Of a stretch of 64,000 nucleotides of DNA, positions 32-33,325 are shown piece after piece. Under the pieces are notes generated by a model. That model saw nothing but the letters and a program-made list of their open reading frames with translations. It was not told the origin of the DNA and did no database searches. The DNA is from a virus. Where the stretch lies: IMG/VR virus record IMGVR_UViG_3300050505_000066, positions 1,017-65,016 of that record; one strand, given 5' to 3'. The first letter of the stretch is position 1. Each line of letters begins with the position of its first letter. The translations under genes and the position numbers were made by a program.

Positions 32-2581
32 TTAGGCTCTCGTATAAACCATCTCAAATGCGATCACATTAACTTGGTTCTCGTATGTATCTGTCGCATC
101 AGAGCTAGCATTTCGTTGAAATTCAATAAATACATGATTCCCGGCTGAAAGTGAAGGCATACTAGTTAAATCCATCGCTTCAACTTGGATTCTATCTGCG
201 GACACAGCATCAGCAGCAATAGTATTTGTATTTAGTGTTGTTGTCGCTGTTGCACTTCCTGTATCTGCTACAGTTCGGTAACCAAATTTAATCTTCATGT
301 TACCAGATGAACTATCAGATGGAGTTATCCAGATATTAAATGCTGTGAGGGAACCAAAGTCTGCTGGTACAACAAAACTTGTTTGAAGAATAACATCAGC
401 AGTATTAATAAGTGGCATTGGATAATATGTTCCATTTGAACCACTTGATCTTGCTACAACTACAACATGAGTAATTCCACGAAACCCTTCAATCGCAGCG
501 GCAGGAATTAATACTCTTGAAGTTCCACCACTTCCAGTTCCGGTTGGAGGGTCAGCCCAAATTGCATCTGTGCCATCACTCTTAAGAAATTTTCCAGAAG
601 CACCAAGAGCAAGACGTGCCCAAACTGGACCTGTTTGTCCAGTGATTAAATCACCACGAACAACAGTTGCTCCTGTTGTATCACCGTGAGTTGAAGATAA
701 AAGATTATGTGTATCAGAAGAATATACTAATGTTCGACGATTTGGGCCACCATCTGTAAAATAAATTCGAGCACCATCATATTCAATAGCTCCTTCTACT
801 GGAGTTGTTAATGTTGAACCAGGAAATAATTTAATACAAGCTTTAGTTGCTGTACTACCTGAAATTTCAACAAAATGAGTTGGTGTTGTTGTAGAACCAA
901 ATTTAGTTGGTCCTGCAATAATATTAGGAGCATCAATAAGAAGATACAACATAAATTTATTTGTAACAGCAGCAGGGAGAGTATTTGTACGACGAATTCC
1001 AAACCAATTTGTAACTGCACCGCCACCAGAGACTGTTGCCGGAGTTACAAAAGTGTCTAAATCAATTCCAATAGCATTTGTTACAGTACCAGTTAATAAT
1101 GTAGTAGAACTAAGAAGGACATCAATTCCTTTCATAGTTCCAACAGTCGCAGGACCGGGACGGAGAGTATAAGTTGCACCACGAATTAATGTTACAGTTC
1201 CTGCTGAAGAAGTTCCTGCTTCTCCACTAATACCATCAATTTCATTAACTGCGGAACCAGAACCGATATTAGGAAGAGCACTAAAATTTGCACCAATTAA
1301 AATATTATCTGTTAAACTAGAAGGGACAATTGGTGAAATTGTAATATCAATACCAGTAAAAGAAGGCGATCCTCCTGTTCTTAGTGGAGCACCAGTATTA
1401 TTTATAATTAAAACTTTGTGTGTTCCAGTTACAGTGCCAGTCCCACTATGTTGTGCTTTAAAATTAACAAGATTTAATGCTGTTCCTGTTGTCCAATCAA
1501 AAGCTTCTACATGTACAACTTCACGATTACCTGCGATTGGGAGAACGGTTCCGACACCAAATCGAGTTCCAATTTGAAGACCACCGGCGATAATTGTCCC
1601 ATTCGGTTGAGCACCAATAAATTGACCTGTCGGACCAAATTTTCGAATTAGTTGAGTATGATCATCTGAAGCAAAAGTTCGTGTTTGTGGTTCTGTTCCG
1701 GCTGTTACAGCATTTGAAACTGTAATATTACTAGAATCAGTCACTACTGTTACAGTCGTCCCCGCTATAACACCAGGACCATAAATAACATGACCGACTT
1801 GAACTGCTCCGAATAAAGCGGCTGAGGTTAAAGCAGTTGTTCCATTAGCAGTACATGAAACATTAAAAGCATCACGATCTGTTGTATCAGAATGTTCAAT
1901 TGCAGAGCCGGGGGCAGCAGCGATTGGACCTACCCAAGCTCCATCAGATTTTCGAATACTTGAAAGCGTTACACGGGCACCACCAATTGAATTTGAACTT
2001 TCAAAAAGAATAAAATTTCCTGTTAAACGACTAGTTAAACGACGATAAATAACATCATCTTTATTTGCTCCATATGCCGTATCAACTGAGGCACTTTCTA
2101 ATAAAAGAAATTTATCAGATGATCCAGCTGGAGTTATTCTTAATGATCCATCAATTGTTGCATTTGCAAGATTTACTCCTAAAGCGATATTTAATCCTTT
2201 TGTGTAAGTAGAATCACGTTCAACAATTCGAAGATTTCCCGTACGAATTGTACAATCTTGTTTTAGTTCAATTCTACCAGAATTATTTGTTGCATTACTA
2301 GCTGTAAAAAGATTAAATCCTTGAAGAACTAAAGCAGTTCCTGTAGGGACAGACTGAGAATTACTACCAAAACCTATTTGTCCTGTAGAACGACCAGGAA
2401 GATAAAAATATTGGCTTAAATCAATAGGAATGGGATTCCCACCACCAGATGGGGCCTCGCCTCGGTCAACAGCAGCAAGTTGGATAGCTTGATTATTGAT
2501 AGCAAGTTCAAGACGACGAAATGACTCATAAATCCATCTTGGACTATCTTTATCTAATGGTAACGGTGCTCTAATTGGCAT
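32..2581 (-). CDS. Tail fibre / receptor-binding protein (849 aa)
   Basis: Gly/Thr/Ser-rich beta-type sequence, the common phage tail-fibre segment 'GAIEYDG...YFTDG', and position downstream of the tail genes. Confidence 0.75.
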   Translation of the reverse strand: MPIRAPLPLDKDSPRWIYESFRRLELAINNQAIQLAAVDRGEAPSGGGNPIPIDLSQYFYLPGRSTGQIGFGSNSQSVPTGTALVLQGFNLFTASNATNNSGRIELKQDCTIRTGNLRIVERDSTYTKGLNIALGVNLANATIDGSLRITPAGSSDKFLLLESASVDTAYGANKDDVIYRRLTSRLTGNFILFESSNSIGGARVTLSSIRKSDGAWVGPIAAAPGSAIEHSDTTDRDAFNVSCTANGTTALTSAALFGAVQVGHVIYGPGVIAGTTVTVVTDSSNITVSNAVTAGTEPQTRTFASDDHTQLIRKFGPTGQFIGAQPNGTIIAGGLQIGTRFGVGTVLPIAGNREVVHVEAFDWTTGTALNLVNFKAQHSGTGTVTGTHKVLIINNTGAPLRTGGSPSFTGIDITISPIVPSSLTDNILIGANFSALPNIGSGSAVNEIDGISGEAGTSSAGTVTLIRGATYTLRPGPATVGTMKGIDVLLSSTTLLTGTVTNAIGIDLDTFVTPATVSGGGAVTNWFGIRRTNTLPAAVTNKFMLYLLIDAPNIIAGPTKFGSTTTPTHFVEISGSTATKACIKLFPGSTLTTPVEGAIEYDGARIYFTDGGPNRRTLVYSSDTHNLLSSTHGDTTGATVVRGDLITGQTGPVWARLALGASGKFLKSDGTDAIWADPPTGTGSGGTSRVLIPAAAIEGFRGITHVVVVARSSGSNGTYYPMPLINTADVILQTSFVVPADFGSLTAFNIWITPSDSSSGNMKIKFGYRTVADTGSATATTTLNTNTIAADAVSADRIQVEAMDLTSMPSLSAGNHVFIEFQRNASSDATDTYENQVNVIAFEMVYTRA

Positions 2582-5500
2582 TAAGAATTTGCCCTATTCA
2601 TTTCAGTTCCAGCATCCGAGGCAAGGTAAGAGAAATTATAAATTCTCATATCTTGATTTAAATCGACACTAATGTCGTCTGAAATAAAAACTTTTTCAAT
2701 TTGAAGTTCAATTCCTTGTTTAGACCAATTTTGATCTGAAACTAATAAATCTCCTGTCAAAGTAGAAAAATATTTTGTATCAATCAATGTAACTGGTTCG
2801 GAAATTCCTGATCCTCTAACTCCAATTGAAATCGTACCATCATCAAATACAAGTGTAACATCTCCCGTAAATTCAACTGGTTGAGAAAGAGTTATCACAC
2901 TATCACTAAAAATTGATTCAACAATTGTTTGAGGAGGAATTCCAACTCCCTTTACAAATGTTCCAATGAGCATTTGTCCAAAAAAATGATTTGAAGAGAT
3001 GTCGGCTGAACCCGAGACAAGAGTACAAGGAATTTGAGTATATGTTCCTAAAGCATCATACAAAATATAAGTTCGTTGAACTTGTGTATCTTGATCATAT
3101 CCTGCTGGATAAATTTTTCTAGTAATAATTGATGGTGCAATAGGAGCTGAAGCAAGGATATCATTTTCATCATGAACTTGATATGTAGATGGTTGAATTA
3201 TACCATTATCTTCAATATATACAGTTCCGTTCGTTTGATGTCCAGTTAATAAATAAGGAACGCCCCCTAATTTTGCTGAGGCCGCTGATCTTGCAGAAAT
3301 TGAAAGTGGGCCGGTAACTGGAAGGAATGTTCCATTTTTAATTTTATCAGCACTATAACTGAAAACTATTGCTCGTGTATTTTTTGTATGAGTACCAGCA
3401 GCATTTTTGGGACAATAATAAAAAACTAACCATTTTTCACGTGGATACACTCGAAGAATTGATGTGAAAAGGGCGTCTGTATTTACGAGGTCTTCAATTT
3501 TAATATCAAGATTAAACGGTCGTGTGGAAACTCCATCTGTATAATTAAATCCATTATATGAAACATAACCGCATACAACTCCTGATCCTTTAAGATCGAA
3601 AAGAGTTGCGGCAAGGGGACCAACAATACCGTGATCGACCACTATATCCTCGTGGGCGATTCCTTTACCAAAGTCAGCATCCACTTCAGTAGGAAGGTAA
3701 TTAACTCGTTTAATTGAATCTCGCATCCCAACTAAAAGAATTTGACCAATTCGTCTTATATATGTAATAATATCTTTATTTTTAGAATCAAAAACAATTT
3801 TATAAGGAGCTGGGAAGGATTCTGGAGCACCAGCAATTGAATATCTTAAAGTTGAAGGATTTGTTACATCATTTAAAACAAGTGATCCTTGGAAAATATC
3901 TCCTGTTGAAGCAGAAGGAATAATGAAATTAGCAGGATCACTAACTGTAGTTCCAATTTGTGAACGATATGTAACAACTTGGTAAGGAGGTCCGTCTAGA
4001 TTAATACTACCGTCTGCAGCGGAAGCTCCAGTGTAATAAACACGAACAGCCACATAATCAACATCAAGTTCTTGGTTACTCGCTGTGTAACTTTTTTGAA
4101 TAATAACACGGAGAGTTCCAATTTGCACAGGAGTCCATGAAATCCCCCATTTTTCAAATTGTCCTCCCCAAATTTTAGGGTAAAAAAACCAATATGTAGA
4201 AGCACCGAAATTTCGATTACTAGAAGTTGCTCCTGGCCCTTGATCTAACCAAATCCAATATCCAGCTTGTGTTCCAAGACCAGGAGAACGACTCACAACT
4301 TTAACTTCAATTCCAGTTACAGTATATGTGTTCCAGGGAGCACCAGTCAAGAATCCAAAAGAAGAAAGAGCGTTTTCTTCTGATTGCCCACTCCCCGAGG
4401 TACCAAAAGCAAAAACACCACCAATAGTTGTAAAACCTGATGGATTTGTAAATTGAGGAAGAGCGTCTGGACCTGCGCCTGTAACTGTTGGAAGAAGATA
4501 ATCTTGATAAGTATTCGTAAATTTTATATCAAGAGAAGTGTTTTCAATCGAAGGTTTTGCAATTCGTTTAAATGTTGCAGCAGGAGGCATGTTTGTTGGA
4601 TCAGGATAAGCGGCTTTTCCTGGTCCAATAAAAGACATATAAACACCCCAATTTGTTGCTCTATTCTTTCCATTAGTTCCATCATTTGTAATTATTGGAA
4701 AAGTGATTCTTACAAATTGATTTGATACATCTGTAATTGAAACAACAACAGCTTGTCCACCATTTGCAACATATCCTGCTTCGACATCATTAATATTGGA
4801 ATTATCTGATAATAAAATTTCTGTAATAAGAAACCAGTAATATCCAATCCCTAAAGTTGCAGACCAAGCTGGTCCTGCTTGAACTGAAACTGTTGGAGCA
4901 TTAGAAATTGGTTGAAGACCTGCTGGACGCATAATCAATGTTTCAGGAGCATTTGTTCCTGAAAATTGTTTCCAAAATAATCTATTTACTGTTCCTACAC
5001 GAGGTAATACAAAAAATGTACTTTGCCATTGAACAATATCAAGGAGTTCTTTTCCAGTATCTGACATTGAAAGAGCAATTCCAGCATCAAAAATCAATGT
5101 TACTGTTGCACTAGCTGTTGCAGCTTGAGAAAGTGTAATTTGAGTATCAGAATTAACGGTTAGGATGTAAGTTCCTGCTGAAATTCCTGGACCAGAAACT
5201 TTTACACCAACAAGCATATTTAAAAATGATCCAGCCGGGGCAGTTACAGTTGCATTAAGATTAATGGTAATACAATTAGCAATAGTTCCTGGTCCTGTAA
5301 TAACTGAAAATGTTCCTGTTAATGCTGTAAAATCACTTTTATAAAGATTTGAGGTTGTTCCATTTCCTTGGGGCCATGCAATTAATTGATCTGTATTTTG
5401 ATCAAATGTTAATTGAACAAGACCTTTAAGTCCCCCTGATAAAGGAGTTACATTATAAACAGTTCGGCCAGGAGCACGTTGAATAGATGGATTTTTATCT

Positions 5501-5610
5501 CTATAAACACAATCCGTTGCTCTTTGAAGTTCACCTGGAAATAAAAGAGCCGAATGTCGTACTGTAACTAATCCACCATTTAAAAATTCAGTAATTAAAG
5601 GCATTACCAT
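2581..5610 (-). CDS. Large virion tail protein (tail tubular B / P22 gp10-like role by synteny), 1009 aa
   Basis: Size, beta-rich composition and position right after the adaptor-like gene; assignment rests mostly on gene order. Confidence 0.6.
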   Translation of the reverse strand: MVMPLITEFLNGGLVTVRHSALLFPGELQRATDCVYRDKNPSIQRAPGRTVYNVTPLSGGLKGLVQLTFDQNTDQLIAWPQGNGTTSNLYKSDFTALTGTFSVITGPGTIANCITINLNATVTAPAGSFLNMLVGVKVSGPGISAGTYILTVNSDTQITLSQAATASATVTLIFDAGIALSMSDTGKELLDIVQWQSTFFVLPRVGTVNRLFWKQFSGTNAPETLIMRPAGLQPISNAPTVSVQAGPAWSATLGIGYYWFLITEILLSDNSNINDVEAGYVANGGQAVVVSITDVSNQFVRITFPIITNDGTNGKNRATNWGVYMSFIGPGKAAYPDPTNMPPAATFKRIAKPSIENTSLDIKFTNTYQDYLLPTVTGAGPDALPQFTNPSGFTTIGGVFAFGTSGSGQSEENALSSFGFLTGAPWNTYTVTGIEVKVVSRSPGLGTQAGYWIWLDQGPGATSSNRNFGASTYWFFYPKIWGGQFEKWGISWTPVQIGTLRVIIQKSYTASNQELDVDYVAVRVYYTGASAADGSINLDGPPYQVVTYRSQIGTTVSDPANFIIPSASTGDIFQGSLVLNDVTNPSTLRYSIAGAPESFPAPYKIVFDSKNKDIITYIRRIGQILLVGMRDSIKRVNYLPTEVDADFGKGIAHEDIVVDHGIVGPLAATLFDLKGSGVVCGYVSYNGFNYTDGVSTRPFNLDIKIEDLVNTDALFTSILRVYPREKWLVFYYCPKNAAGTHTKNTRAIVFSYSADKIKNGTFLPVTGPLSISARSAASAKLGGVPYLLTGHQTNGTVYIEDNGIIQPSTYQVHDENDILASAPIAPSIITRKIYPAGYDQDTQVQRTYILYDALGTYTQIPCTLVSGSADISSNHFFGQMLIGTFVKGVGIPPQTIVESIFSDSVITLSQPVEFTGDVTLVFDDGTISIGVRGSGISEPVTLIDTKYFSTLTGDLLVSDQNWSKQGIELQIEKVFISDDISVDLNQDMRIYNFSYLASDAGTEMNRANS

Positions 5611-6557
5611 CCACCATAATCAGGATAGAAAGGTCCATTATTCCAAGTAAGTCGGTATTGAGGCCACATCTCCATTTGGGATTTCATGTGAACTATTTCA
5701 TCTTCAGTTACGTTTTCATCATCTTCTTTAGCTTTAGCTAAAGCTCGATTTGAATCTGAAAGAGCTAAAGCGGGATCATCAAATCCTCTTCGGGTTGTAA
5801 TTAACAATCCTCGACAATAATCTAAAAATTTATAAAGATAGGGACCATACATATCAAGAGGATCAGCCATCTCATCAAATCTACGATAATAATCCACACG
5901 AATACTATCTGATTTTTGTGGAACTCTTAAAATTCTAAGTTGAAAGGTTCCTTTATTTTGACTTAAAGCACTTGAAATATTAAAAATTGTGTAAGCTTCA
6001 GGAGTTCCTTGAATTGTTTGATCTAATGTTACTTTATTCCAATCTCTGAATCGAATGAAGTCTAGAGGCCATTTAAGAGCACTTACAAATCGAACTCCAT
6101 AATGTTTACCAAAATCTGTTGGAAGATTATAATCTGTTTGTCCTGCTACAACAGGAATTAAACCACCAAAAGTTAAAGTAGTTGTTGTTGATCCTGTTGG
6201 ATTTGCAGATAGTGTAATAGATGCAATTGAACGATCAGCATTTCGAGTAAAACTTAACACAGTTGTATTTGCTGGAATATTTGTTCCAATTACTGTAATG
6301 CCTGCATTGATTCCATCAAAAACCGACGCCGAGGGAGCAGTTACAACTGGATTTCCTGAATTTAAAATACAATTATTGACAGCAAAAGTAGAAGTATTAT
6401 CTCGAAGAAGAAATTCCCAATCACGATCTTGCCAATCAGCAAAACCACGTAATATTGCTTCCTCAGCCATGGCTAGACTATCTAGTAATCCAGCTCCTCC
6501 AACTGGGCGAGCAATATATTTTTTAGCATCTGCTCGGGTTATTGATAAATTTGACAC
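5604..6557 (-). CDS. Head-tail adaptor / tail tubular A-like protein
   Basis: Helical N-terminus, 'W.FL' motif, 'GQTDYNLPTDF' and 'GTPEAYTIF' segments typical of podovirus adaptors; position. Confidence 0.6.
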   Translation of the reverse strand: MSNLSITRADAKKYIARPVGGAGLLDSLAMAEEAILRGFADWQDRDWEFLLRDNTSTFAVNNCILNSGNPVVTAPSASVFDGINAGITVIGTNIPANTTVLSFTRNADRSIASITLSANPTGSTTTTLTFGGLIPVVAGQTDYNLPTDFGKHYGVRFVSALKWPLDFIRFRDWNKVTLDQTIQGTPEAYTIFNISSALSQNKGTFQLRILRVPQKSDSIRVDYYRRFDEMADPLDMYGPYLYKFLDYCRGLLITTRRGFDDPALALSDSNRALAKAKEDDENVTEDEIVHMKSQMEMWPQYRLTWNNGPFYPDYGGW

Positions 6558-20902: not shown

Positions 20903-21464
20903 TCTGAAATGTCATTTCAAGGGCCTTGATAGCGAGTTTTGGTCCCACTGCTCTATAGATTCGAGTAAGTCTGTTAAGAACATCTTCTTCTGAAAGTGGT
21001 AATCCTGGCCCCAATTCTTTGGTTCTTGCGATATCACGAAGTTTTGTCCAGGCTTGAATAGCTGTAATTCGTGTATCGGGGTGAGTTCTTTGGTTAAAGG
21101 CGATGTTTTTGATAATTCTAAGTAGTTTTTTACGAGTTTCTTCATCATTTTCAAGGTCTTCATCGACTTCGACATCCACAATCTCTCGAAGAGTCTTACC
21201 ACCGAGCATTTGTTTTTCAGATTCTTCTGTGAGAGGCTGATCTGTTGCCTCGGCAGGCTTTATTTCATCAATTTTTTGTGAAATTTCGATTTTTGTTGGT
21301 TCTGGAACTCGTCTATTTGGCTGAAGTACACCTTCTACAATAAGATCGGCTCTTGCTGAGGCTACAGTTCTTGGAGAAACCCCGGTTTTCTTAGCAATTT
21401 CATAATCTGTGGCGTCAGGAGTCTTGATAATCGCGTTTTTGGCTAATCTTCTCGGTAATCCCAT
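20790..21464 (-). CDS. Putative terminase small subunit (N-terminal HTH)
   Basis: 'DATDYEIAKKTGVSPRTVASAR' HTH; first gene of the late operon upstream of terL. Confidence 0.65.
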   Translation of the reverse strand: MGLPRRLAKNAIIKTPDATDYEIAKKTGVSPRTVASARADLIVEGVLQPNRRVPEPTKIEISQKIDEIKPAEATDQPLTEESEKQMLGGKTLREIVDVEVDEDLENDEETRKKLLRIIKNIAFNQRTHPDTRITAIQAWTKLRDIARTKELGPGLPLSEEDVLNRLTRIYRAVGPKLAIKALEMTFQIEKDSNASQTSNQQDSTPIGTTEAPIEAGYESSPSQT

Positions 21465-21664
21465 TAATCTGCACTTTGTCTAAAATTGAATTCCACATTG
21501 ATTTTCGCCAGTTTTTGGCATATTCACTATCATCACACCACAAACAGATGGATTTTTGGAGGTTAACTTGTTTATTTTCAATAGGTTGGGTCATATTTTT
21601 GCATTCAGTTTTTTATTTTTGTGCCATACACGTTCTGAATCTATCTCGCCCTCGCTTGGGGGGT

Positions 21665-22008
21665 TGGCCCGGTTCTTGCATGGTGTAAACATTACAACGC
21701 CCCTATCCTGGCACGAAACTTGCTACAACAAGAAGCGTGCCACGTGTAACATGATGGGGCACAACACGTTAGAAATGAAAGCAAGAACTATGCCTCGCGG
21801 AGGGGCCTGGACGGTACACCCCAGCATAAACCTTGCCAAACTAACCCCTTGCGAGGCAACACATTACCGACCCCACGTACACCGAATGTCCCATTTAGTA
21901 CGAAATCCCCGTGGCACACTTTATGAAGCAAAGAGAGAGCGCGTAACCCATTGCGCGACAACGATTTAAATTCTTTCTCATCTGGTAGAATGTGGCACGT
22001 TAATGGCA
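21665..22008. promoter_or_regulatory. Cluster of sigma54-type -24/-12 elements on both strands
   Basis: Plus: TGGCCCG-GTTC-TTGCA (21665-80), TGGCACG-AAAC-TTGCT (21709-24), TGGCACG-TTAA-TGGCA (21993-22008). Minus: TGGCAAG-GTTT-ATGCT (21823-38) and near-match TGGCACG-CTTC-TTGT (21728-42). Confidence 0.55.
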
Positions 22009-22067
22009 ATAGGTACATGTGTCCGCGAGAGAAAACGCGGATGCGGAGACTGTCAAAAAATTGGACA

Positions 22068-22416
22068 GACTAGGCGCATGGTACACTTGTAATGAAAGGA
22101 TACAGGTAAATCCATGCCAAAGGTAGCATTCACAGCGGATGATGTTGCTGCGGCGAATCGTGCCGACAAGCATCAAGTCAAGGTAAACAACGCCTATGTC
22201 AAGGCGATGCGTTCACAGGCCGATGCTCTGTTGGGACAGGGAATCAAGCCGGGTTCAAAGGACTACGCCGAGAAGATCGATCCCATCCTAGCGGATATCG
22301 GCGCTACGGATTGGCTTACGACACGGATCGAGGAGCGTATCTCCCATCGTGTTCCCGGTGCGGTCAAGGTCAAGGGAAGCAATCCCTTTCGCTCGTAATC
22401 CGCCATGCGCCTAGTC
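22068..22416. repeat. 14-bp perfect inverted repeat flanking the first early gene
   Basis: GACTAGGCGCATGG (22068-81) and CCATGCGCCTAGTC (22403-16). Confidence 0.9.
22114..22398 (+). CDS. First early gene, hypothetical (GC-rich)
   Basis: Clean ORF with RBS-like sequence upstream; codon usage is more GC-rich than the rest of the genome. Confidence 0.7.
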   Translation: MPKVAFTADDVAAANRADKHQVKVNNAYVKAMRSQADALLGQGIKPGSKDYAEKIDPILADIGATDWLTTRIEERISHRVPGAVKVKGSNPFRS

Positions 22417-22420
22417 AAAT

Positions 22421-22559
22421 GATATGCCGAAATATTCCCGGTATAGGCCCGCCTAATCAGCGGGGCAATAGGATTCGGAGTGATTCTCCGACGAACCCAG
22501 TTATTTACTGGGACCGGGAATATCTACCAGCTTGACATGCTGGTACTGATGAGGCTGTC
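22421..22559 (+). ncRNA. Type II hammerhead ribozyme with a multi-hairpin insertion in stem III; predicted cleavage 3' of C22524
   Basis: GCC-GAAA (22426-32); stem III ATATTCCCGGT/ACCGGGAATAT; AUC triplet; stem I TACCAGC/GCTGGTA; CTGATGA (22546-52); stem II GGC-TGTC pairs with GATA-T-GCC. All core residues are present. Confidence 0.9.
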
Positions 22560-22589
22560 TATCGTATCGTATCATCGGAGGATCATATC

Positions 22590-22787
22590 ATGTCTCGTCG
22601 TAATCCATTCTCTCCATCGTTCACATCAGGTTCTCTTGATGATCTAATCATCAAGAATCGTTGTGAACACGAAACCCACGGTTCTATCTTCGTAGAAGGA
22701 TCGGATTGGCAACAGTGTTCTCTCTGTGGTGAGATGTATTGTCTTGATGACATCACCGAAGTCTTCAATCTCGATTACGCAGGTTAA
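22590..22787 (+). CDS. Small early protein (C/H zinc-binding-like)
   Basis: GGAGG RBS; CEH...CSLC. Confidence 0.6.
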   Translation: MSRRNPFSPSFTSGSLDDLIIKNRCEHETHGSIFVEGSDWQQCSLCGEMYCLDDITEVFNLDYAG

Positions 22788-22916
22788 ATTAGGAACCTTG
22801 TTTTCACGTGATTATCCTGTGAGCCATAAATACCCAAAACATCGCGGGCTAGGCTCGATGGATACGTGGAAATGCAAACAAAGGGTTTCTGATTCTAAGT
22901 CTACGAAGGGAGAAAC

Positions 22917-23111
22917 ATGAGAACGCCAAAACAATCAGCTGACATGATTGGTGTCTTGTATCGAGCAATGAAAACATTTCCTGATCTTCGTCTCTGTCAA
23001 ATCATTTCAAACGCAACAAGATTAGGAGATGTCTTCTACGTAACCGATGATGTTCTCATCGCTCGTCTTCATCAATATATCGAGGATTTCAAGCCACAAT
23101 CCACCATCTAA
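22917..23111 (+). CDS. Small conserved-type phage protein
   Basis: 'FPDLRLCQIISN...DVFYVTDD' pattern seen in many phages; GGGAG RBS. Confidence 0.6.
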   Translation: MRTPKQSADMIGVLYRAMKTFPDLRLCQIISNATRLGDVFYVTDDVLIARLHQYIEDFKPQSTI

Positions 23112-23143
23112 ATCATTCCACGGGGAATGTATTGGTGGAAGAC

Positions 23144-23297
23144 GGAAGGGATAACTAGGTGATCTCTAACAATGCGCTGAACCGAATGCGCTAACAAATG
23201 AGATCATCAAACAGTCTCCGCTGAGACTATACCTAGCACAAGTGACAAGGCTTCTAAGCTATTGTCCGCCATCGGTATACAGATGGTCCCATCTTTC
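23144..23297 (+). ncRNA. Candidate multi-stem structured RNA
   Basis: Nested helices CTAGG/CCTAG, TGATCTC/GAGATCA, AGTCTC/GAGACT, GACAA/TTGTC, GCCATC/GATGGT and GGG/CCC in an intergenic region. Confidence 0.6.
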
Positions 23298-24490
23298 AGG
23301 AGACGACAATGAAAATAATCAAAGCCACACCACTCGACTGGATTCTTTTCATTCTCGCCATCATCGCTCTATTACTATTTGCATCTCACGATCTTCAGCT
23401 TTCATCTTCTGACTCCCATACTCAAACCGTGGAGATTGAACAGTGACAGATGTAATTCTCAAAATCTGTCCAATCTGTAAAGGATATCGACGTTTTCACC
23501 ACATTTGGAATAGCACTACCAAAAAAGGTGATCTTTGTTGTGATGAATGTCTCACCCCACTCAAACCAAAGGAGAAATAATGCTCTATCTTTGGTCCCGC
23601 TGGCATTACATCAAAAGAATTCTCGAAAGGAACACATGAACGGTATTTTTCCTCATCCCTGGGCAGTAAAGCTATTCATAACCGGAATCACAGTTTTCAT
23701 AGTTGGTTATCATGGAAACACAGATACTGAAAAACAACGTGAATTCGGTGGTGCCTGTTTAATCTTTGGATATCTCATGATTCTCATTGGAATTTGGGGA
23801 TGGTAAAAATGAAAACACCCAAACACGTTCGTTTCACCAAATGTCGTAATCCCGGTTGTAACAAGAGGAGACCCCGGCGAGAAGTAAAAGATGATTATGT
23901 ATGTCTCACTGGTGCAAAACGCCGTTGTCCCTACTCCAAATAAGGAGGATTCATGAAGAATTCGTTTCTGATTCTTCTCTGTCTCATTTCAATGGGCTGT
24001 TCACAAAGGAGCAGAGCACCGGCTAATCCATCTTTTGTTGCCTCGCAGGTGTACACAAACAGTGTGTACATACAGCGACCATATCATCATCCCCACAAAG
24101 TTCGTCCTTTGAAAACATGGACTGGAACAATGTGGCTTGACTGGCTCGCTAGAGGCCGAAGAAACTAGGCTCAAACATTCATGGTAAATTATAAATTAAA
24201 TTATTGGAGTAGTTCGCTGGTTTACCCAACTAGCTAACACGGCGAAACCAGGAATAATAATCAACTGGACACTAGCTAGTGACACTAGCCGCTAGAAGAT
24301 TTTATTCTTGGTCATATCCAGTTCGGTACTGGATATCTGACGATGCCAACCGCGAGGGAACAATGGTAGTTAAATGTCCAAACTGTAAAACTCCAATGAC
24401 AATCGGTGCTCCACACGATGATTCTTCACGTTATCAGTATGAGTGTCATTCATGTGGTAAGATAATTCGAATCAGTAAAACCTGGGAATA

Positions 24491-25870
24491 TTGATGCCAA
24501 TTTCAACAGTGGAATTTCGAATGCCCTTTCAGATTCCTATTTTAGATGAACATACATCTATTTTAGGACACAGAAGCTCTGAAAGAATGAGTTGTATTTG
24601 TCCTGAATGTAGACGCCTTTGTCCAAATCAACATTGTCAGTGTAAACAAATTGAGGATTTCATGCCAACAACACCAGTCAATCCATTTCGTAATTTCCTT
24701 TGTCACTATTGTCAGCAAACGAAACCCCCGGAAGAACGTCATATTCCGCCGGCAAGAATTGTTCCTTATAACATGTGCAATGCATGTTTCACACGTCTGA
24801 TCTTTGTTTGTCCAACTTGTCACAATGAAGTTGTTCAAGGAGACAGAACTTCTTTTTCTTACGGTGAAGAACGAATTCAAATATGTCGAGTTTGTTTCAA
24901 TCGCACATATTATTGTTGTGTGAATTGTAATGCCATTAGATCACGAGAACTTCAACCAGGACATTGTGTTTCAGCTAATAGATTGGTTTGTGAAGCTTGT
25001 GTAGAACACTATACAGAATGTGAAAATTGTGGCCGTCTAACTTATCATGACGAAGTGTGTTATGATGATGAAGATGAAGATCACAATCATCCTCTTTGTG
25101 GCAATTGTATGGAGAGACCAAGGCTTCTTATGAGTGACACATTTAATCTCAATCCGTTCCGAAGAAAAGTTGGATTTGAAATCGAATTCTGTTCTCGTGA
25201 TGAACCCAATATCAGAAGCTTTGGTCAAATAAAAGGTGATGGTAGTATCATGCCATCTTCAGGTGATTATGGTTATGAATTTGCCAGCCATATCACTCAA
25301 GGTGACAAACTTTTCGAAATCATTGGAAAGGTTTGTAACCGAATTCGTGCGACAGGCGGTTATGTAAATTCAAGCTGTGGTGTTCATGTTCACCTTGACA
25401 TGAATGGTTCAACTGTAACTCAGAGAAATAACATTACAAGTTGGTGGGGAATCTTTGAAAGAATTTTCTTTGGTATGGTCGCCCCCTCTCGAAGAAACAA
25501 TCAATACACTCGCTCTGTGGGAGACCGATATTCTTCACCAAATGACCGCTACAGAACTCTCAACACTTCAGCATTTTCCAAATTTGGAACATATGAAATT
25601 CGTGTACATCAAGGAAGTCTTTCCTCAGCTAAACTCAAAGATTGGACATTAACTCTTCTGTCCTTCTTCGAAACATTCCAAGATATTCGTCCAACTGAAG
25701 CACGTTTTACTCAAATTCGATCAATGAATGATCGAGAACTCTTGATCTTTTTCTTCCAACAAATCAAGATTCCTCGTCACCTTCAGAAAAACATTCTGAA
25801 GAGAATCCGTACTTACAACGGAAAACCTGAACATCAGTTTCTTAATCTCGCAAAGAAAGGAAAAATTTAA
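24491..25870 (+). CDS. Putative amidoligase (COOH-NH2 ligase type 2) with N-terminal Cys-rich zinc-finger array
   Basis: 'VGFEIEF', 'DGSI', 'GYEFAS', 'SCGVHVHL', 'RYRTLN', 'YEIRVHQGS'; many CxxC pairs in the first ~200 aa. Confidence 0.85.
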   Translation: MMPISTVEFRMPFQIPILDEHTSILGHRSSERMSCICPECRRLCPNQHCQCKQIEDFMPTTPVNPFRNFLCHYCQQTKPPEERHIPPARIVPYNMCNACFTRLIFVCPTCHNEVVQGDRTSFSYGEERIQICRVCFNRTYYCCVNCNAIRSRELQPGHCVSANRLVCEACVEHYTECENCGRLTYHDEVCYDDEDEDHNHPLCGNCMERPRLLMSDTFNLNPFRRKVGFEIEFCSRDEPNIRSFGQIKGDGSIMPSSGDYGYEFASHITQGDKLFEIIGKVCNRIRATGGYVNSSCGVHVHLDMNGSTVTQRNNITSWWGIFERIFFGMVAPSRRNNQYTRSVGDRYSSPNDRYRTLNTSAFSKFGTYEIRVHQGSLSSAKLKDWTLTLLSFFETFQDIRPTEARFTQIRSMNDRELLIFFFQQIKIPRHLQKNILKRIRTYNGKPEHQFLNLAKKGKI

Positions 25871-31704: not shown

Positions 31705-32136
31705 ATGTATCAAATGAACGAAGCTGAAAAAGAGCTTGTAGTTGCTTTGAGATCAGGGAAATATCAGCAAGGCATAAATTGTTTAAGACCAACTGAAAAT
31801 AGTTTTTGTTGTCTTGGTGTTGCTTGTGATATTTTCCTTCCAGGTTATTGGTCTGTTGAAAATCATAATGGTCACATGGCATGGTATTCAAAAAATACAC
31901 AAGGCTCAGTTTTACCATATGATGTTGTAGTAAAATTAAAATGGTACGATGAACAAGGAACTACAACTATTCCAGTAAATAGAGATGATCTAGATTCTAT
32001 GGGAAGTGATTTTTATGATTTAGCTACATTAAATGATTCAGGTTTTACATTTAATCAAATTGCTGATATCATTGAAGCAGGGCTTGTTTGTCATGACGAT
32101 GAAGAATACGCTTTATTGGAGGAAAAAGATGTCTAA
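31705..32136 (+). CDS. Conserved phage hypothetical protein
   Basis: 'ALRSGKYQQG...FCCLGVACD...LND.G.TFNQIAD' motif family common in phages. Confidence 0.7.
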   Translation: MYQMNEAEKELVVALRSGKYQQGINCLRPTENSFCCLGVACDIFLPGYWSVENHNGHMAWYSKNTQGSVLPYDVVVKLKWYDEQGTTTIPVNRDDLDSMGSDFYDLATLNDSGFTFNQIADIIEAGLVCHDDEEYALLEEKDV

Positions 32137-33325
32137 AATCCGCTGGTTTTGTGAACAACCAGAAAAAGACGCTATTCTCCAAGTTTACGATACTGCATCC
32201 ATGCCTTTCGTTCACGGTGTTGCTGTTATGCCTGACTGTCACTATGGTCGAGGTTCTACCGTGGGAACCGTAGTAGCTACAAAAGGGGCTATCATGCCCG
32301 CCTGTGTGGGGGTTGATATTGGATGTGGGATGATTGCCCTTGAAACAAATCTCACTCTTAAAGATATTAAGCCTTTTCTTTCAGATATTCGAAAAGGAAT
32401 TGAAAGACGAATTCCAACAGGGATTGGGAATTATGGAATGAATTCCAACCTTTCTGAAAGTGCAAGACCACGAATTGAAAAACTTGAAGACTTAAATGAA
32501 AAAGACGGTAAAAATAGAGGAGATTTTGATAAAAACTGGAGAAATGCTCTCGGAAGTCTCGGAGGGGGAAATCATTTTATTGAGATTTGTTTAAATCAAT
32601 ATGAAGCAAATCTTGACGAAACTCCAGTTTGGGTAATTCTCCACTCTGGCTCTCGTGGTGTTGGAAATAGAATTGGAACTTTTTGGACACGATTTGCTCA
32701 AAATCTAGCTAAGAAATATTATTATAACTCATTTCTTCCAAATCCCGATCTCGCATATCTCGTGGAAAAGAGCGAGGAATTCTGGTTCTACATGAAAGAC
32801 CTATTTTGGGCACAAGAATTCGCTCGTCTCAATCGCGAGGAAATGATGGACAGGGTAATCCAAGAACTGACTCACACTGTCTGTAAGACTACTACATCAG
32901 AGTACAACATTCAAGTTCAAAGAATCAATTGTCATCACAATTTTGTTCAGAAGGAAAATTACAGTGGACAAAATTATTGGATCACAAGAAAAGGAGCCAT
33001 TGAAGCAAAAGAAGGGATGTTGGCTCTCATCCCCGGTTCAATGGGAACCCCTTCATACGTTGTTAAAGGACTTGGAAACGAAGGAGCCTTCAATAGTGCC
33101 CCTCACGGTGCGGGAAGGAAAATGAGTCGTGGTAAAGCAAGAAAGATGTTTACTCTCGCCAATCTACAAGACAAGATGCAAGGAATTGAATCAAGGCTCA
33201 GAACTGAGATTCTTGATGAACACCCTGAGGCATACAAAGATATTAACCAAGTTATGGAAGAAGCAAAAACACTTGTCGAACCAGTTCACAAATTAGTGCA
33301 AGTGATTAATGTGAAGGGAGATTAA
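32129..33325 (+). CDS. rtcB: RNA 2',3'-cyclic phosphate/3'-phosphate--5'-OH ligase RtcB
   Basis: 'MPDCHYG', 'VGVDIGCG', 'GGGNHFIE', 'HSGSRG', 'HHN', 'HGAGR', 'DEHPEAYK'; start ATG 32129 with GGAGG RBS. Confidence 0.95.
   Translation: MSKIRWFCEQPEKDAILQVYDTASMPFVHGVAVMPDCHYGRGSTVGTVVATKGAIMPACVGVDIGCGMIALETNLTLKDIKPFLSDIRKGIERRIPTGIGNYGMNSNLSESARPRIEKLEDLNEKDGKNRGDFDKNWRNALGSLGGGNHFIEICLNQYEANLDETPVWVILHSGSRGVGNRIGTFWTRFAQNLAKKYYYNSFLPNPDLAYLVEKSEEFWFYMKDLFWAQEFARLNREEMMDRVIQELTHTVCKTTTSEYNIQVQRINCHHNFVQKENYSGQNYWITRKGAIEAKEGMLALIPGSMGTPSYVVKGLGNEGAFNSAPHGAGRKMSRGKARKMFTLANLQDKMQGIESRLRTEILDEHPEAYKDINQVMEEAKTLVEPVHKLVQVINVKGD

Follow-up and report, generated by a model that had tools for sequence, protein, structure and literature searches.

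Type II hammerhead ribozymes (RF02276; Perreault et al. 2011, PMC3088659) have a consensus in which, for most members, a pseudoknot joins loop I to the nucleotides just past stem II. Intergenic hammerheads of phages have been documented to cleave polycistronic transcripts of ~2 kb (PMC3088659), and the resulting transcripts have been suggested to differ in stability or translation efficiency (PMC6765202). Matches to the consensus also arise by chance in large databases, and inactive look-alikes have been reported (PMC3088659). We describe here an element that is very probably a true self-cleaving hammerhead; the proposal as a whole, namely that a rhizosphere phage carries it as a functional type II ribozyme within its rightward, polycistronic early RNA, we regard as reasonably probable.

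The element lies in a 64-kb stretch of viral DNA (hereafter the window) comprising bases 1017-65016 of an IMG/VR virus record; the record is 65.6 kb long and complete according to CheckV. The phage is contained in three rhizosphere metagenome DNA runs, with zero differences among the copies, and none of the runs listed as containing it is an RNA run. Genes leftward of ~21465 are oriented leftward, and from ~22114 a rightward series of very small genes runs into an amidoligase/GATase pair, followed later by RtcB, RlaP, a family A DNA polymerase and a tRNA cluster. The ribozyme occupies the 191-nt gap separating a 94-aa ORF (22114-22398, plus strand) and a Cys/His-rich 65-aa ORF (22590-22787, plus strand), both of which were called as genes in independent assemblies. 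Among 5.8 billion proteins, the 94-aa ORF had no homologues except itself and the 65-aa ORF was an ORFan as well; a blastn search of phage GenBank with 21500-24500 returned zero matches. The 65-aa ORF has a Shine-Dalgarno (SD) sequence, GGAGGA, at 22577-82, and its ATG (22590-92) is located 30 nt 3' of the ribozyme. Across 21300-24600 around the ribozyme, no terminator-like sites were found on the plus strand, and promoter-like sites were no more frequent than in shuffled sequence. Since the ribozyme is intergenic, on the sense strand and without a terminator-like site, it should be transcribed within early polycistronic RNA. Two further intergenic gaps of the early operon would also be stably folded as RNA, one into a long hairpin (22788-22916, z=-3.1) and one into a multi-hairpin domain (23112-23308, z=-2.6); neither gap matched an Rfam family at E<=10 or contained a hammerhead core.

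The whole type II hammerhead extends over 22421-22563 on the plus strand, as supported by sequence, minimum free energy (MFE) fold, descriptor and covariance model. Inside an outer 4-bp clamp, GAUA/UAUC (22421-24 / 22560-63), it runs 5' to 3' from one strand of stem II through GAAA, the stem III domain, UC, the stem I hairpin and CUGAUGA to the second strand of stem II. The 5' strand of stem II, GCC (22426-22428, with C11.1 at 22428), pairs with GGC at 22553-22555 (G10.1 at 22553) and is followed by core residues G12, A13 and A14 (22429-22431). The 5' strand of stem III (22432-22442, with A15.1 at 22432) then makes 11 perfect pairs with 22513-22523 (U16.1 at 22523), the two strands constituting an inverted repeat of 100% complementarity. 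Stem III is capped by a 70-nt insertion (22443-22512) predicted to fold into three hairpins (22446-66, 22475-91 and 22496-22512), which form a four-way junction with stem III. The residue following stem III, C22524, is C17 by its position relative to the core, and cleavage is predicted between 22524 and 22525. The stem I hairpin (22525-22545) consists of 7 bp, UACCAGC/GCUGGUA (22525-31 / 22539-45), and a UUGACAU loop, and leads into core residues C3-A9, CUGAUGA (22546-22552).

When compared with the published definition of the hammerhead core (PMC3088659), the element deviated at no position. The pairs adjacent to the core are intact (U22525-A22545, G22553-C22428 and A22432-U22523), and stems I, II and III comprise 7, 3 and 11 bp without wobble pairs. 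[quoted passage not shown] This agrees with the preliminary description of the locus, which had identified a type II hammerhead with a full core and three stems, a ~70-nt three-hairpin domain in stem III, and C22524 as the residue at the cleavage site. In addition, we found a pseudoknot that this description lacked: the 3' tail UGUC (22556-22559) can form 4 bp with GACA of loop I (22534-22537), beginning directly after stem II with zero offset. By a rough count, the chance probability of a 4-bp Watson-Crick match at this offset is ~1.6%, and the pseudoknot is a feature for which our descriptor did not select.

This descriptor demanded the exact core and contiguous stems, with minimal stem lengths of 4/3/4, and was run over both strands. 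It returned one site in the 64-kb window on either strand, compared with 0.027 sites per window at minimal stems in 300 dinucleotide-preserving shuffles of the window; none of the 300 shuffles had a site with stem I of at least 6 bp and stem III of at least 8 bp. A type I/II/III descriptor applied to the window identified no other robust hammerhead, the remaining matches being minimal-stem sites that we judged to be at chance level.

In contrast with the descriptor, RF02276 and all other Rfam hammerhead models left the element unmatched both at the gathering threshold and at E<=10. A search with the Hammerhead_II model had been suggested in the preliminary description as a check, and it thus failed to recover the ribozyme. 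Positive controls scored in the same scan, namely the L018 locus (5 matches, 44-56 bits) and the L084 locus. We also built our own type II covariance model, R1, from canonical examples in the control loci. The best match of R1 on both strands of the window was the ribozyme (22499-22563, 21.2 bits, E ~4e-4), with UC, stem I, CUGAUGA and GGC correctly aligned; the match covered only the 3' half and did not bridge the insertion. Rfam therefore misses the element because of the 70-nt insertion, which is a limitation of the model and not a missing feature of the ribozyme. In their annotated example and type I descriptor, the published RNAMotif hammerhead descriptors permit a loop III of 3-100 nt, and this 100-nt limit would place the element inside the original definition of the family.

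The unconstrained MFE fold of 22415-22570 reproduced all helices, giving the three-way junction together with the three stem III hairpins, and none of 200 shuffles was equally stable (z=-4.56). Folded alone, the insert adopted these hairpins again at -28.6 kcal/mol (MFE frequency 0.56, z=-3.5), and they recurred in a 582-nt context fold; stem III plus insert was very stable, reaching -44.9 kcal/mol (z=-5.7). In a model of secondary structure only, the probability of the ribozyme-competent fold fell from 0.4 to <0.003 once bases past 22580 had been transcribed, suggesting that cleavage is probably co-transcriptional or is aided by the pseudoknot or tertiary contacts. After cleavage, the freed core strand GAUGAGGC (22548-22555) can pair with GUCUCGUC (22592-22599), which spans the G of the start codon and the following codons of the 65-aa ORF, and in the MFE structure of the 3' product UG at 22556-57 is additionally paired with CA at 22589-90. 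We rejected this pairing with the start codon as evidence, since its duplex energy departs only marginally from chance (p ~0.05). A tRNA-like reading of the cloverleaf was likewise rejected: the tRNA model had no match at E<=10, and on inspection the loop sizes and sequences were unfit.

All other copies of the phage (L086 and the contigs of the three runs) are identical, so the locus itself provides no covariation, and because the flanking ORFs are without homologues, orthologous ribozymes are not recoverable by synteny. The amidoligase encoded 2 kb downstream of the ribozyme does have distant homologues. One of these is carried by an 8.9-kb JGI metagenome phage contig, L087, which has the same layout of small ORFs, amidoligase and GATase. 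Its amidoligase and GATase share 39% and 52% identity, respectively, with those of the window; conservation does not extend beyond these two genes, and the ORFs next to the two ribozymes show no relationship. Between two called genes of L087 that are 504 nt apart lies a type II hammerhead whose core is complete (L087:499-615); its stems I/II/III measure 6/5/9 bp and C17 is at 577. A 6-bp pseudoknot, UCUCGC (588-593) with GCGAGA (616-621), again lies directly past stem II. Stem III contains a branched 52-nt insertion, in the form of an extended helix with a two-hairpin tip, that is weakly structured (z=-0.5), and an Rfam scan of this hammerhead also returned no match. The L087 element thus resembles that of the window in being type II, in its pseudoknot and enlarged stem III, and in its location in a small-ORF early region upstream of the amidoligase, but it differs in having G10.1-U11.1 in place of G-C and in the sequence of every helix. 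Nearly every comparable pair differs on both sides with pairing kept, in a comparison of two sequences. A MAFFT alignment that combined both enlarged elements and canonical hammerheads was discarded, since it was incorrect.

Canonical type II hammerheads (L018, L021, L084 and L277) have a loop III of 4-8 nt, and in the 3.9 Mb of loci examined, only the window element and L087 exceed this range, with 70 and 52 nt. The recurring feature is an enlarged stem III and not a specific domain; because the insert of L087 is built differently, nothing supports a particular role for the three hairpins. Among ~150 other amidoligase-homologue loci we found no further hammerhead with an enlarged stem III, and we count the fact that other amidoligase-module phages are without a hammerhead against our proposal, together with the short stem II of only 3 bp. 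A 16-mer scan of IMG/VR produced mostly chance matches, plus canonical type II (L018, L084) and type III (L008, L012) hammerheads, and no hammerhead resembling the window element. Several other features of these loci were recorded. L018 (IMGVR_UViG_3300005613_004910, 384-5899) contains at least 6 canonical 59-nt type II hammerheads within ~5.5 kb, between small genes, and L021, on the same contig, contains three more. A tRNA gene is found in the small-ORF region upstream of the amidoligase in both L087 (1310-1381, ~3.2 kb upstream) and L088 (972-1044, ~110 nt upstream), and the L087 hammerhead is followed at a short distance by a 16-nt inverted repeat (640-655 / 750-765).

What might the element do? 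RiboJ is a synthetic insulator made of the sTRSV hammerhead, an engineered type III ribozyme, plus a hairpin in the 5' UTR; upstream of the SD, its hammerhead strips away the upstream RNA context and leaves a 5'-OH and a hairpin before the ribosome binding site. The type III hammerheads of L008 and L012 are also just upstream of an SD and ATG. For the window element, we propose that once RNA polymerase passes ~22559, stems I-III and the pseudoknot between loop I and the tail would fold and the RNA would cut itself between C22524 and U22525. The upstream piece would carry the 94-aa ORF and end in ...AUC>p, with the 2',3'-cyclic phosphate enclosed by a stem III domain of 92 nt that could block 3'-exonuclease in place of a terminator hairpin. 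The downstream piece would begin with 5'-OH-UACCAGC, directly on the stem I hairpin and 65 nt before the start codon of the 65-aa ORF, and would thus acquire a defined, context-independent, RiboJ-like 5' UTR. The net effect would be to separate the GC-rich first gene from the AT-richer later genes in both stability and translation. The nature of the end groups, 2',3'-cyclic phosphate and 5'-OH, follows from established hammerhead chemistry acting on a cleavage that is itself predicted.

The element probably serves to process and insulate polycistronic RNA of the phage, a function proposed previously for such ribozymes. Where the preliminary description had the ribozyme process or stabilise the early transcript, processing is plausible from precedent and from the intergenic, sense-strand position; that the ribozyme is active in vivo, and that its stem III domain stabilises or insulates, we infer.

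Two features of the surrounding sequence fit the uncoupling role. GC content drops from 0.47-0.565 to ~0.40 exactly at the ribozyme, and a perfect 14-bp inverted repeat (22068-22081 / 22403-22416, plus strand, 100% complementary) brackets the 94-aa ORF, with arm 2 ending 5 nt 5' of the ribozyme. This repeat forms a long-range RNA helix in both the MFE and centroid structures of 22019-22600; paired in RNA, its arms would enclose the 94-aa ORF as a panhandle. Arm 1 overlaps an extended -10-like sequence, TGGTACACT, and the repeat could equally be a pair of DNA operators. Sigma-54-like -24/-12 elements are also present 5' of the first early gene, at window positions 21993-22008 and 21709-21724 (TGGCACG-N4-TTGCT and a near match, TGGCACG-N4-TGGCA); transcripts arising from them, if they are used, would contain arm 1.

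We considered whether the element could instead be a chance or decayed motif that matches the consensus without cleaving and whose hairpins serve another purpose or none. The silence of Rfam, the absence of covariation among identical copies, the short stem II, the predicted competing downstream pairing and the existence of inactive look-alikes (PMC3088659) are all compatible with this reading. However, its stem lengths were reached in 0 of 300 shuffles, the type II pseudoknot is present although the descriptor made no demand for it, the site is intergenic and on the sense strand, a related phage (L087) has a second, independently diverged example, and the competing pairing is not beyond chance (p ~0.05), making a chance origin quite improbable. 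A cleaving ribozyme might still be under allosteric control, with the four-way junction binding a protein or small molecule and so switching the early genes. The insert is indeed discrete and well folded, and two of its hairpins are alike (6-bp stems with U-rich 5-nt loops), which might suit a binder that acts as a dimer. Between the junction and the core, however, lies the perfect 11-bp stem III, which isolates the junction, so that folding of the core should not depend on the insert. In addition, Rfam aptamer and riboswitch families were unmatched, the insert of L087 folds differently and weakly, and look-alike hairpins number 3 per strand genome-wide against 1.55 expected, which is not beyond chance and led us to reject a genome-wide regulon of such hairpins. 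We therefore consider allosteric control very improbable. Another reading refines our preferred explanation and does not oppose it: the GC-rich region at ~21600-22560 would be a moron-like acquired cassette, its ribozyme kept to detach the foreign transcript from the resident early genes. The GC island, which includes an ORF-free leader, the 94-aa ORF and the hammerhead, stands out from flanks of ~0.40 and ends exactly at the ribozyme, the 94-aa ORF is an ORFan, and an inverted repeat flanks it. Yet no copy was present in the collections searched (phage GenBank, IMG/VR and 5.8 billion proteins), the neighbouring 224-aa minus-strand gene yields only sub-threshold HTH matches, and structured RNA and regulatory DNA alone could account for the high GC, so we rate acquisition as a cassette as unlikely.

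The preliminary description had further raised the possibility that phage RtcB rejoins the hammerhead ends and thereby circularises or re-splices early RNAs, for which a variant would be an RNA circle containing the 94-aa ORF, brought together by the 14-bp helix. RtcB acts on 2',3'-cyclic phosphate plus 5'-OH ends, which suits the predicted products, and the same genome does encode the enzyme, as this description had stated (32033-33325, plus strand; Pfam PF01139, E=7e-115); moreover, the perfect 14-bp repeat flanks the 94-aa ORF and stops 5 nt short of the ribozyme. A circle made by ribozymes and RtcB, whether Tornado-like or viroid-like, nevertheless needs two flanking cleavage sites, and there is one. 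With a single cut no circle is possible, and RtcB could merely reverse the cleavage. The second self-cleaving element that had been suspected at 23144-23297 did not materialise, as neither a hammerhead by descriptor nor an Rfam ribozyme family by permissive scan was found there; permissive scans likewise matched no Rfam ribozyme family across the window, with 23101-23305, 21440-22440 and 22300-23400 among the segments covered, and RF02276 had no match on the whole genome. The 10-kb flanks of phage RtcB genes (80 loci) were also not enriched in hammerheads (1 in 1.41 Mb, versus 2 in 1.62 Mb of controls), although this association test is crude and its controls were amidoligase loci unrelated to RtcB; the sole hammerhead near those genes is a canonical one (L277). 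Five viral records that bear hammerheads are without RtcB, a weak point since all are fragments. The RtcB gene itself is 9.5 kb from the ribozyme; a tRNA gene precedes it by ~390 nt and an RlaP gene follows a few kb later, the usual setting for tRNA repair. Finally, spliced or circular products were considered for other phage hammerheads and none was detected (PMC3088659). Given the absence of a second cut, the lack of enrichment and the tRNA-repair context, we regard a link to RtcB as extremely improbable, and our result weakens the idea that phage RtcB partners with phage hammerheads. We give equally little credence to a form of this reading in which the ribozyme, cloverleaf cap and 14-nt helix would make a panhandle RNA of the first early gene, whose cyclic-phosphate end RtcB reseals, reversing the processing, or joins to a second, as yet unrecognised 5'-OH; if true, it would constitute a ribozyme/ligase switch for early gene expression.

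Processing of the early transcript by a self-cleaving hammerhead remains the explanation that we prefer, and it bears on a wider question. The role of the abundant hammerheads of bacteria and phages is unsettled, and a locus where a lone ribozyme lies between two tiny genes and would give a defined 5' UTR offers a simple test case of whether phage hammerheads are natural transcript insulators or stabilisers. Because both of the enlarged-stem-III examples are invisible to Rfam (2/2 missed), surveys based on covariance models probably under-count such hammerheads. In relation to RiboJ, the window element is a natural type II ribozyme as opposed to an engineered type III, and it would leave a large domain on the upstream product. 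With the type II hammerheads of RF02276 (PMC3088659) it shares an identical core, the G10.1-C11.1 pair, the pseudoknot and an intergenic position inside a phage operon, while differing from them in total length (~140 nt compared to ~50-66 nt for canonical members) and in occurring as a single copy, in contrast with clustered type II hammerheads. Taken together, these comparisons indicate that the element represents a modest structural departure within a well-known family, distinguished by an atypically large, branched stem III.
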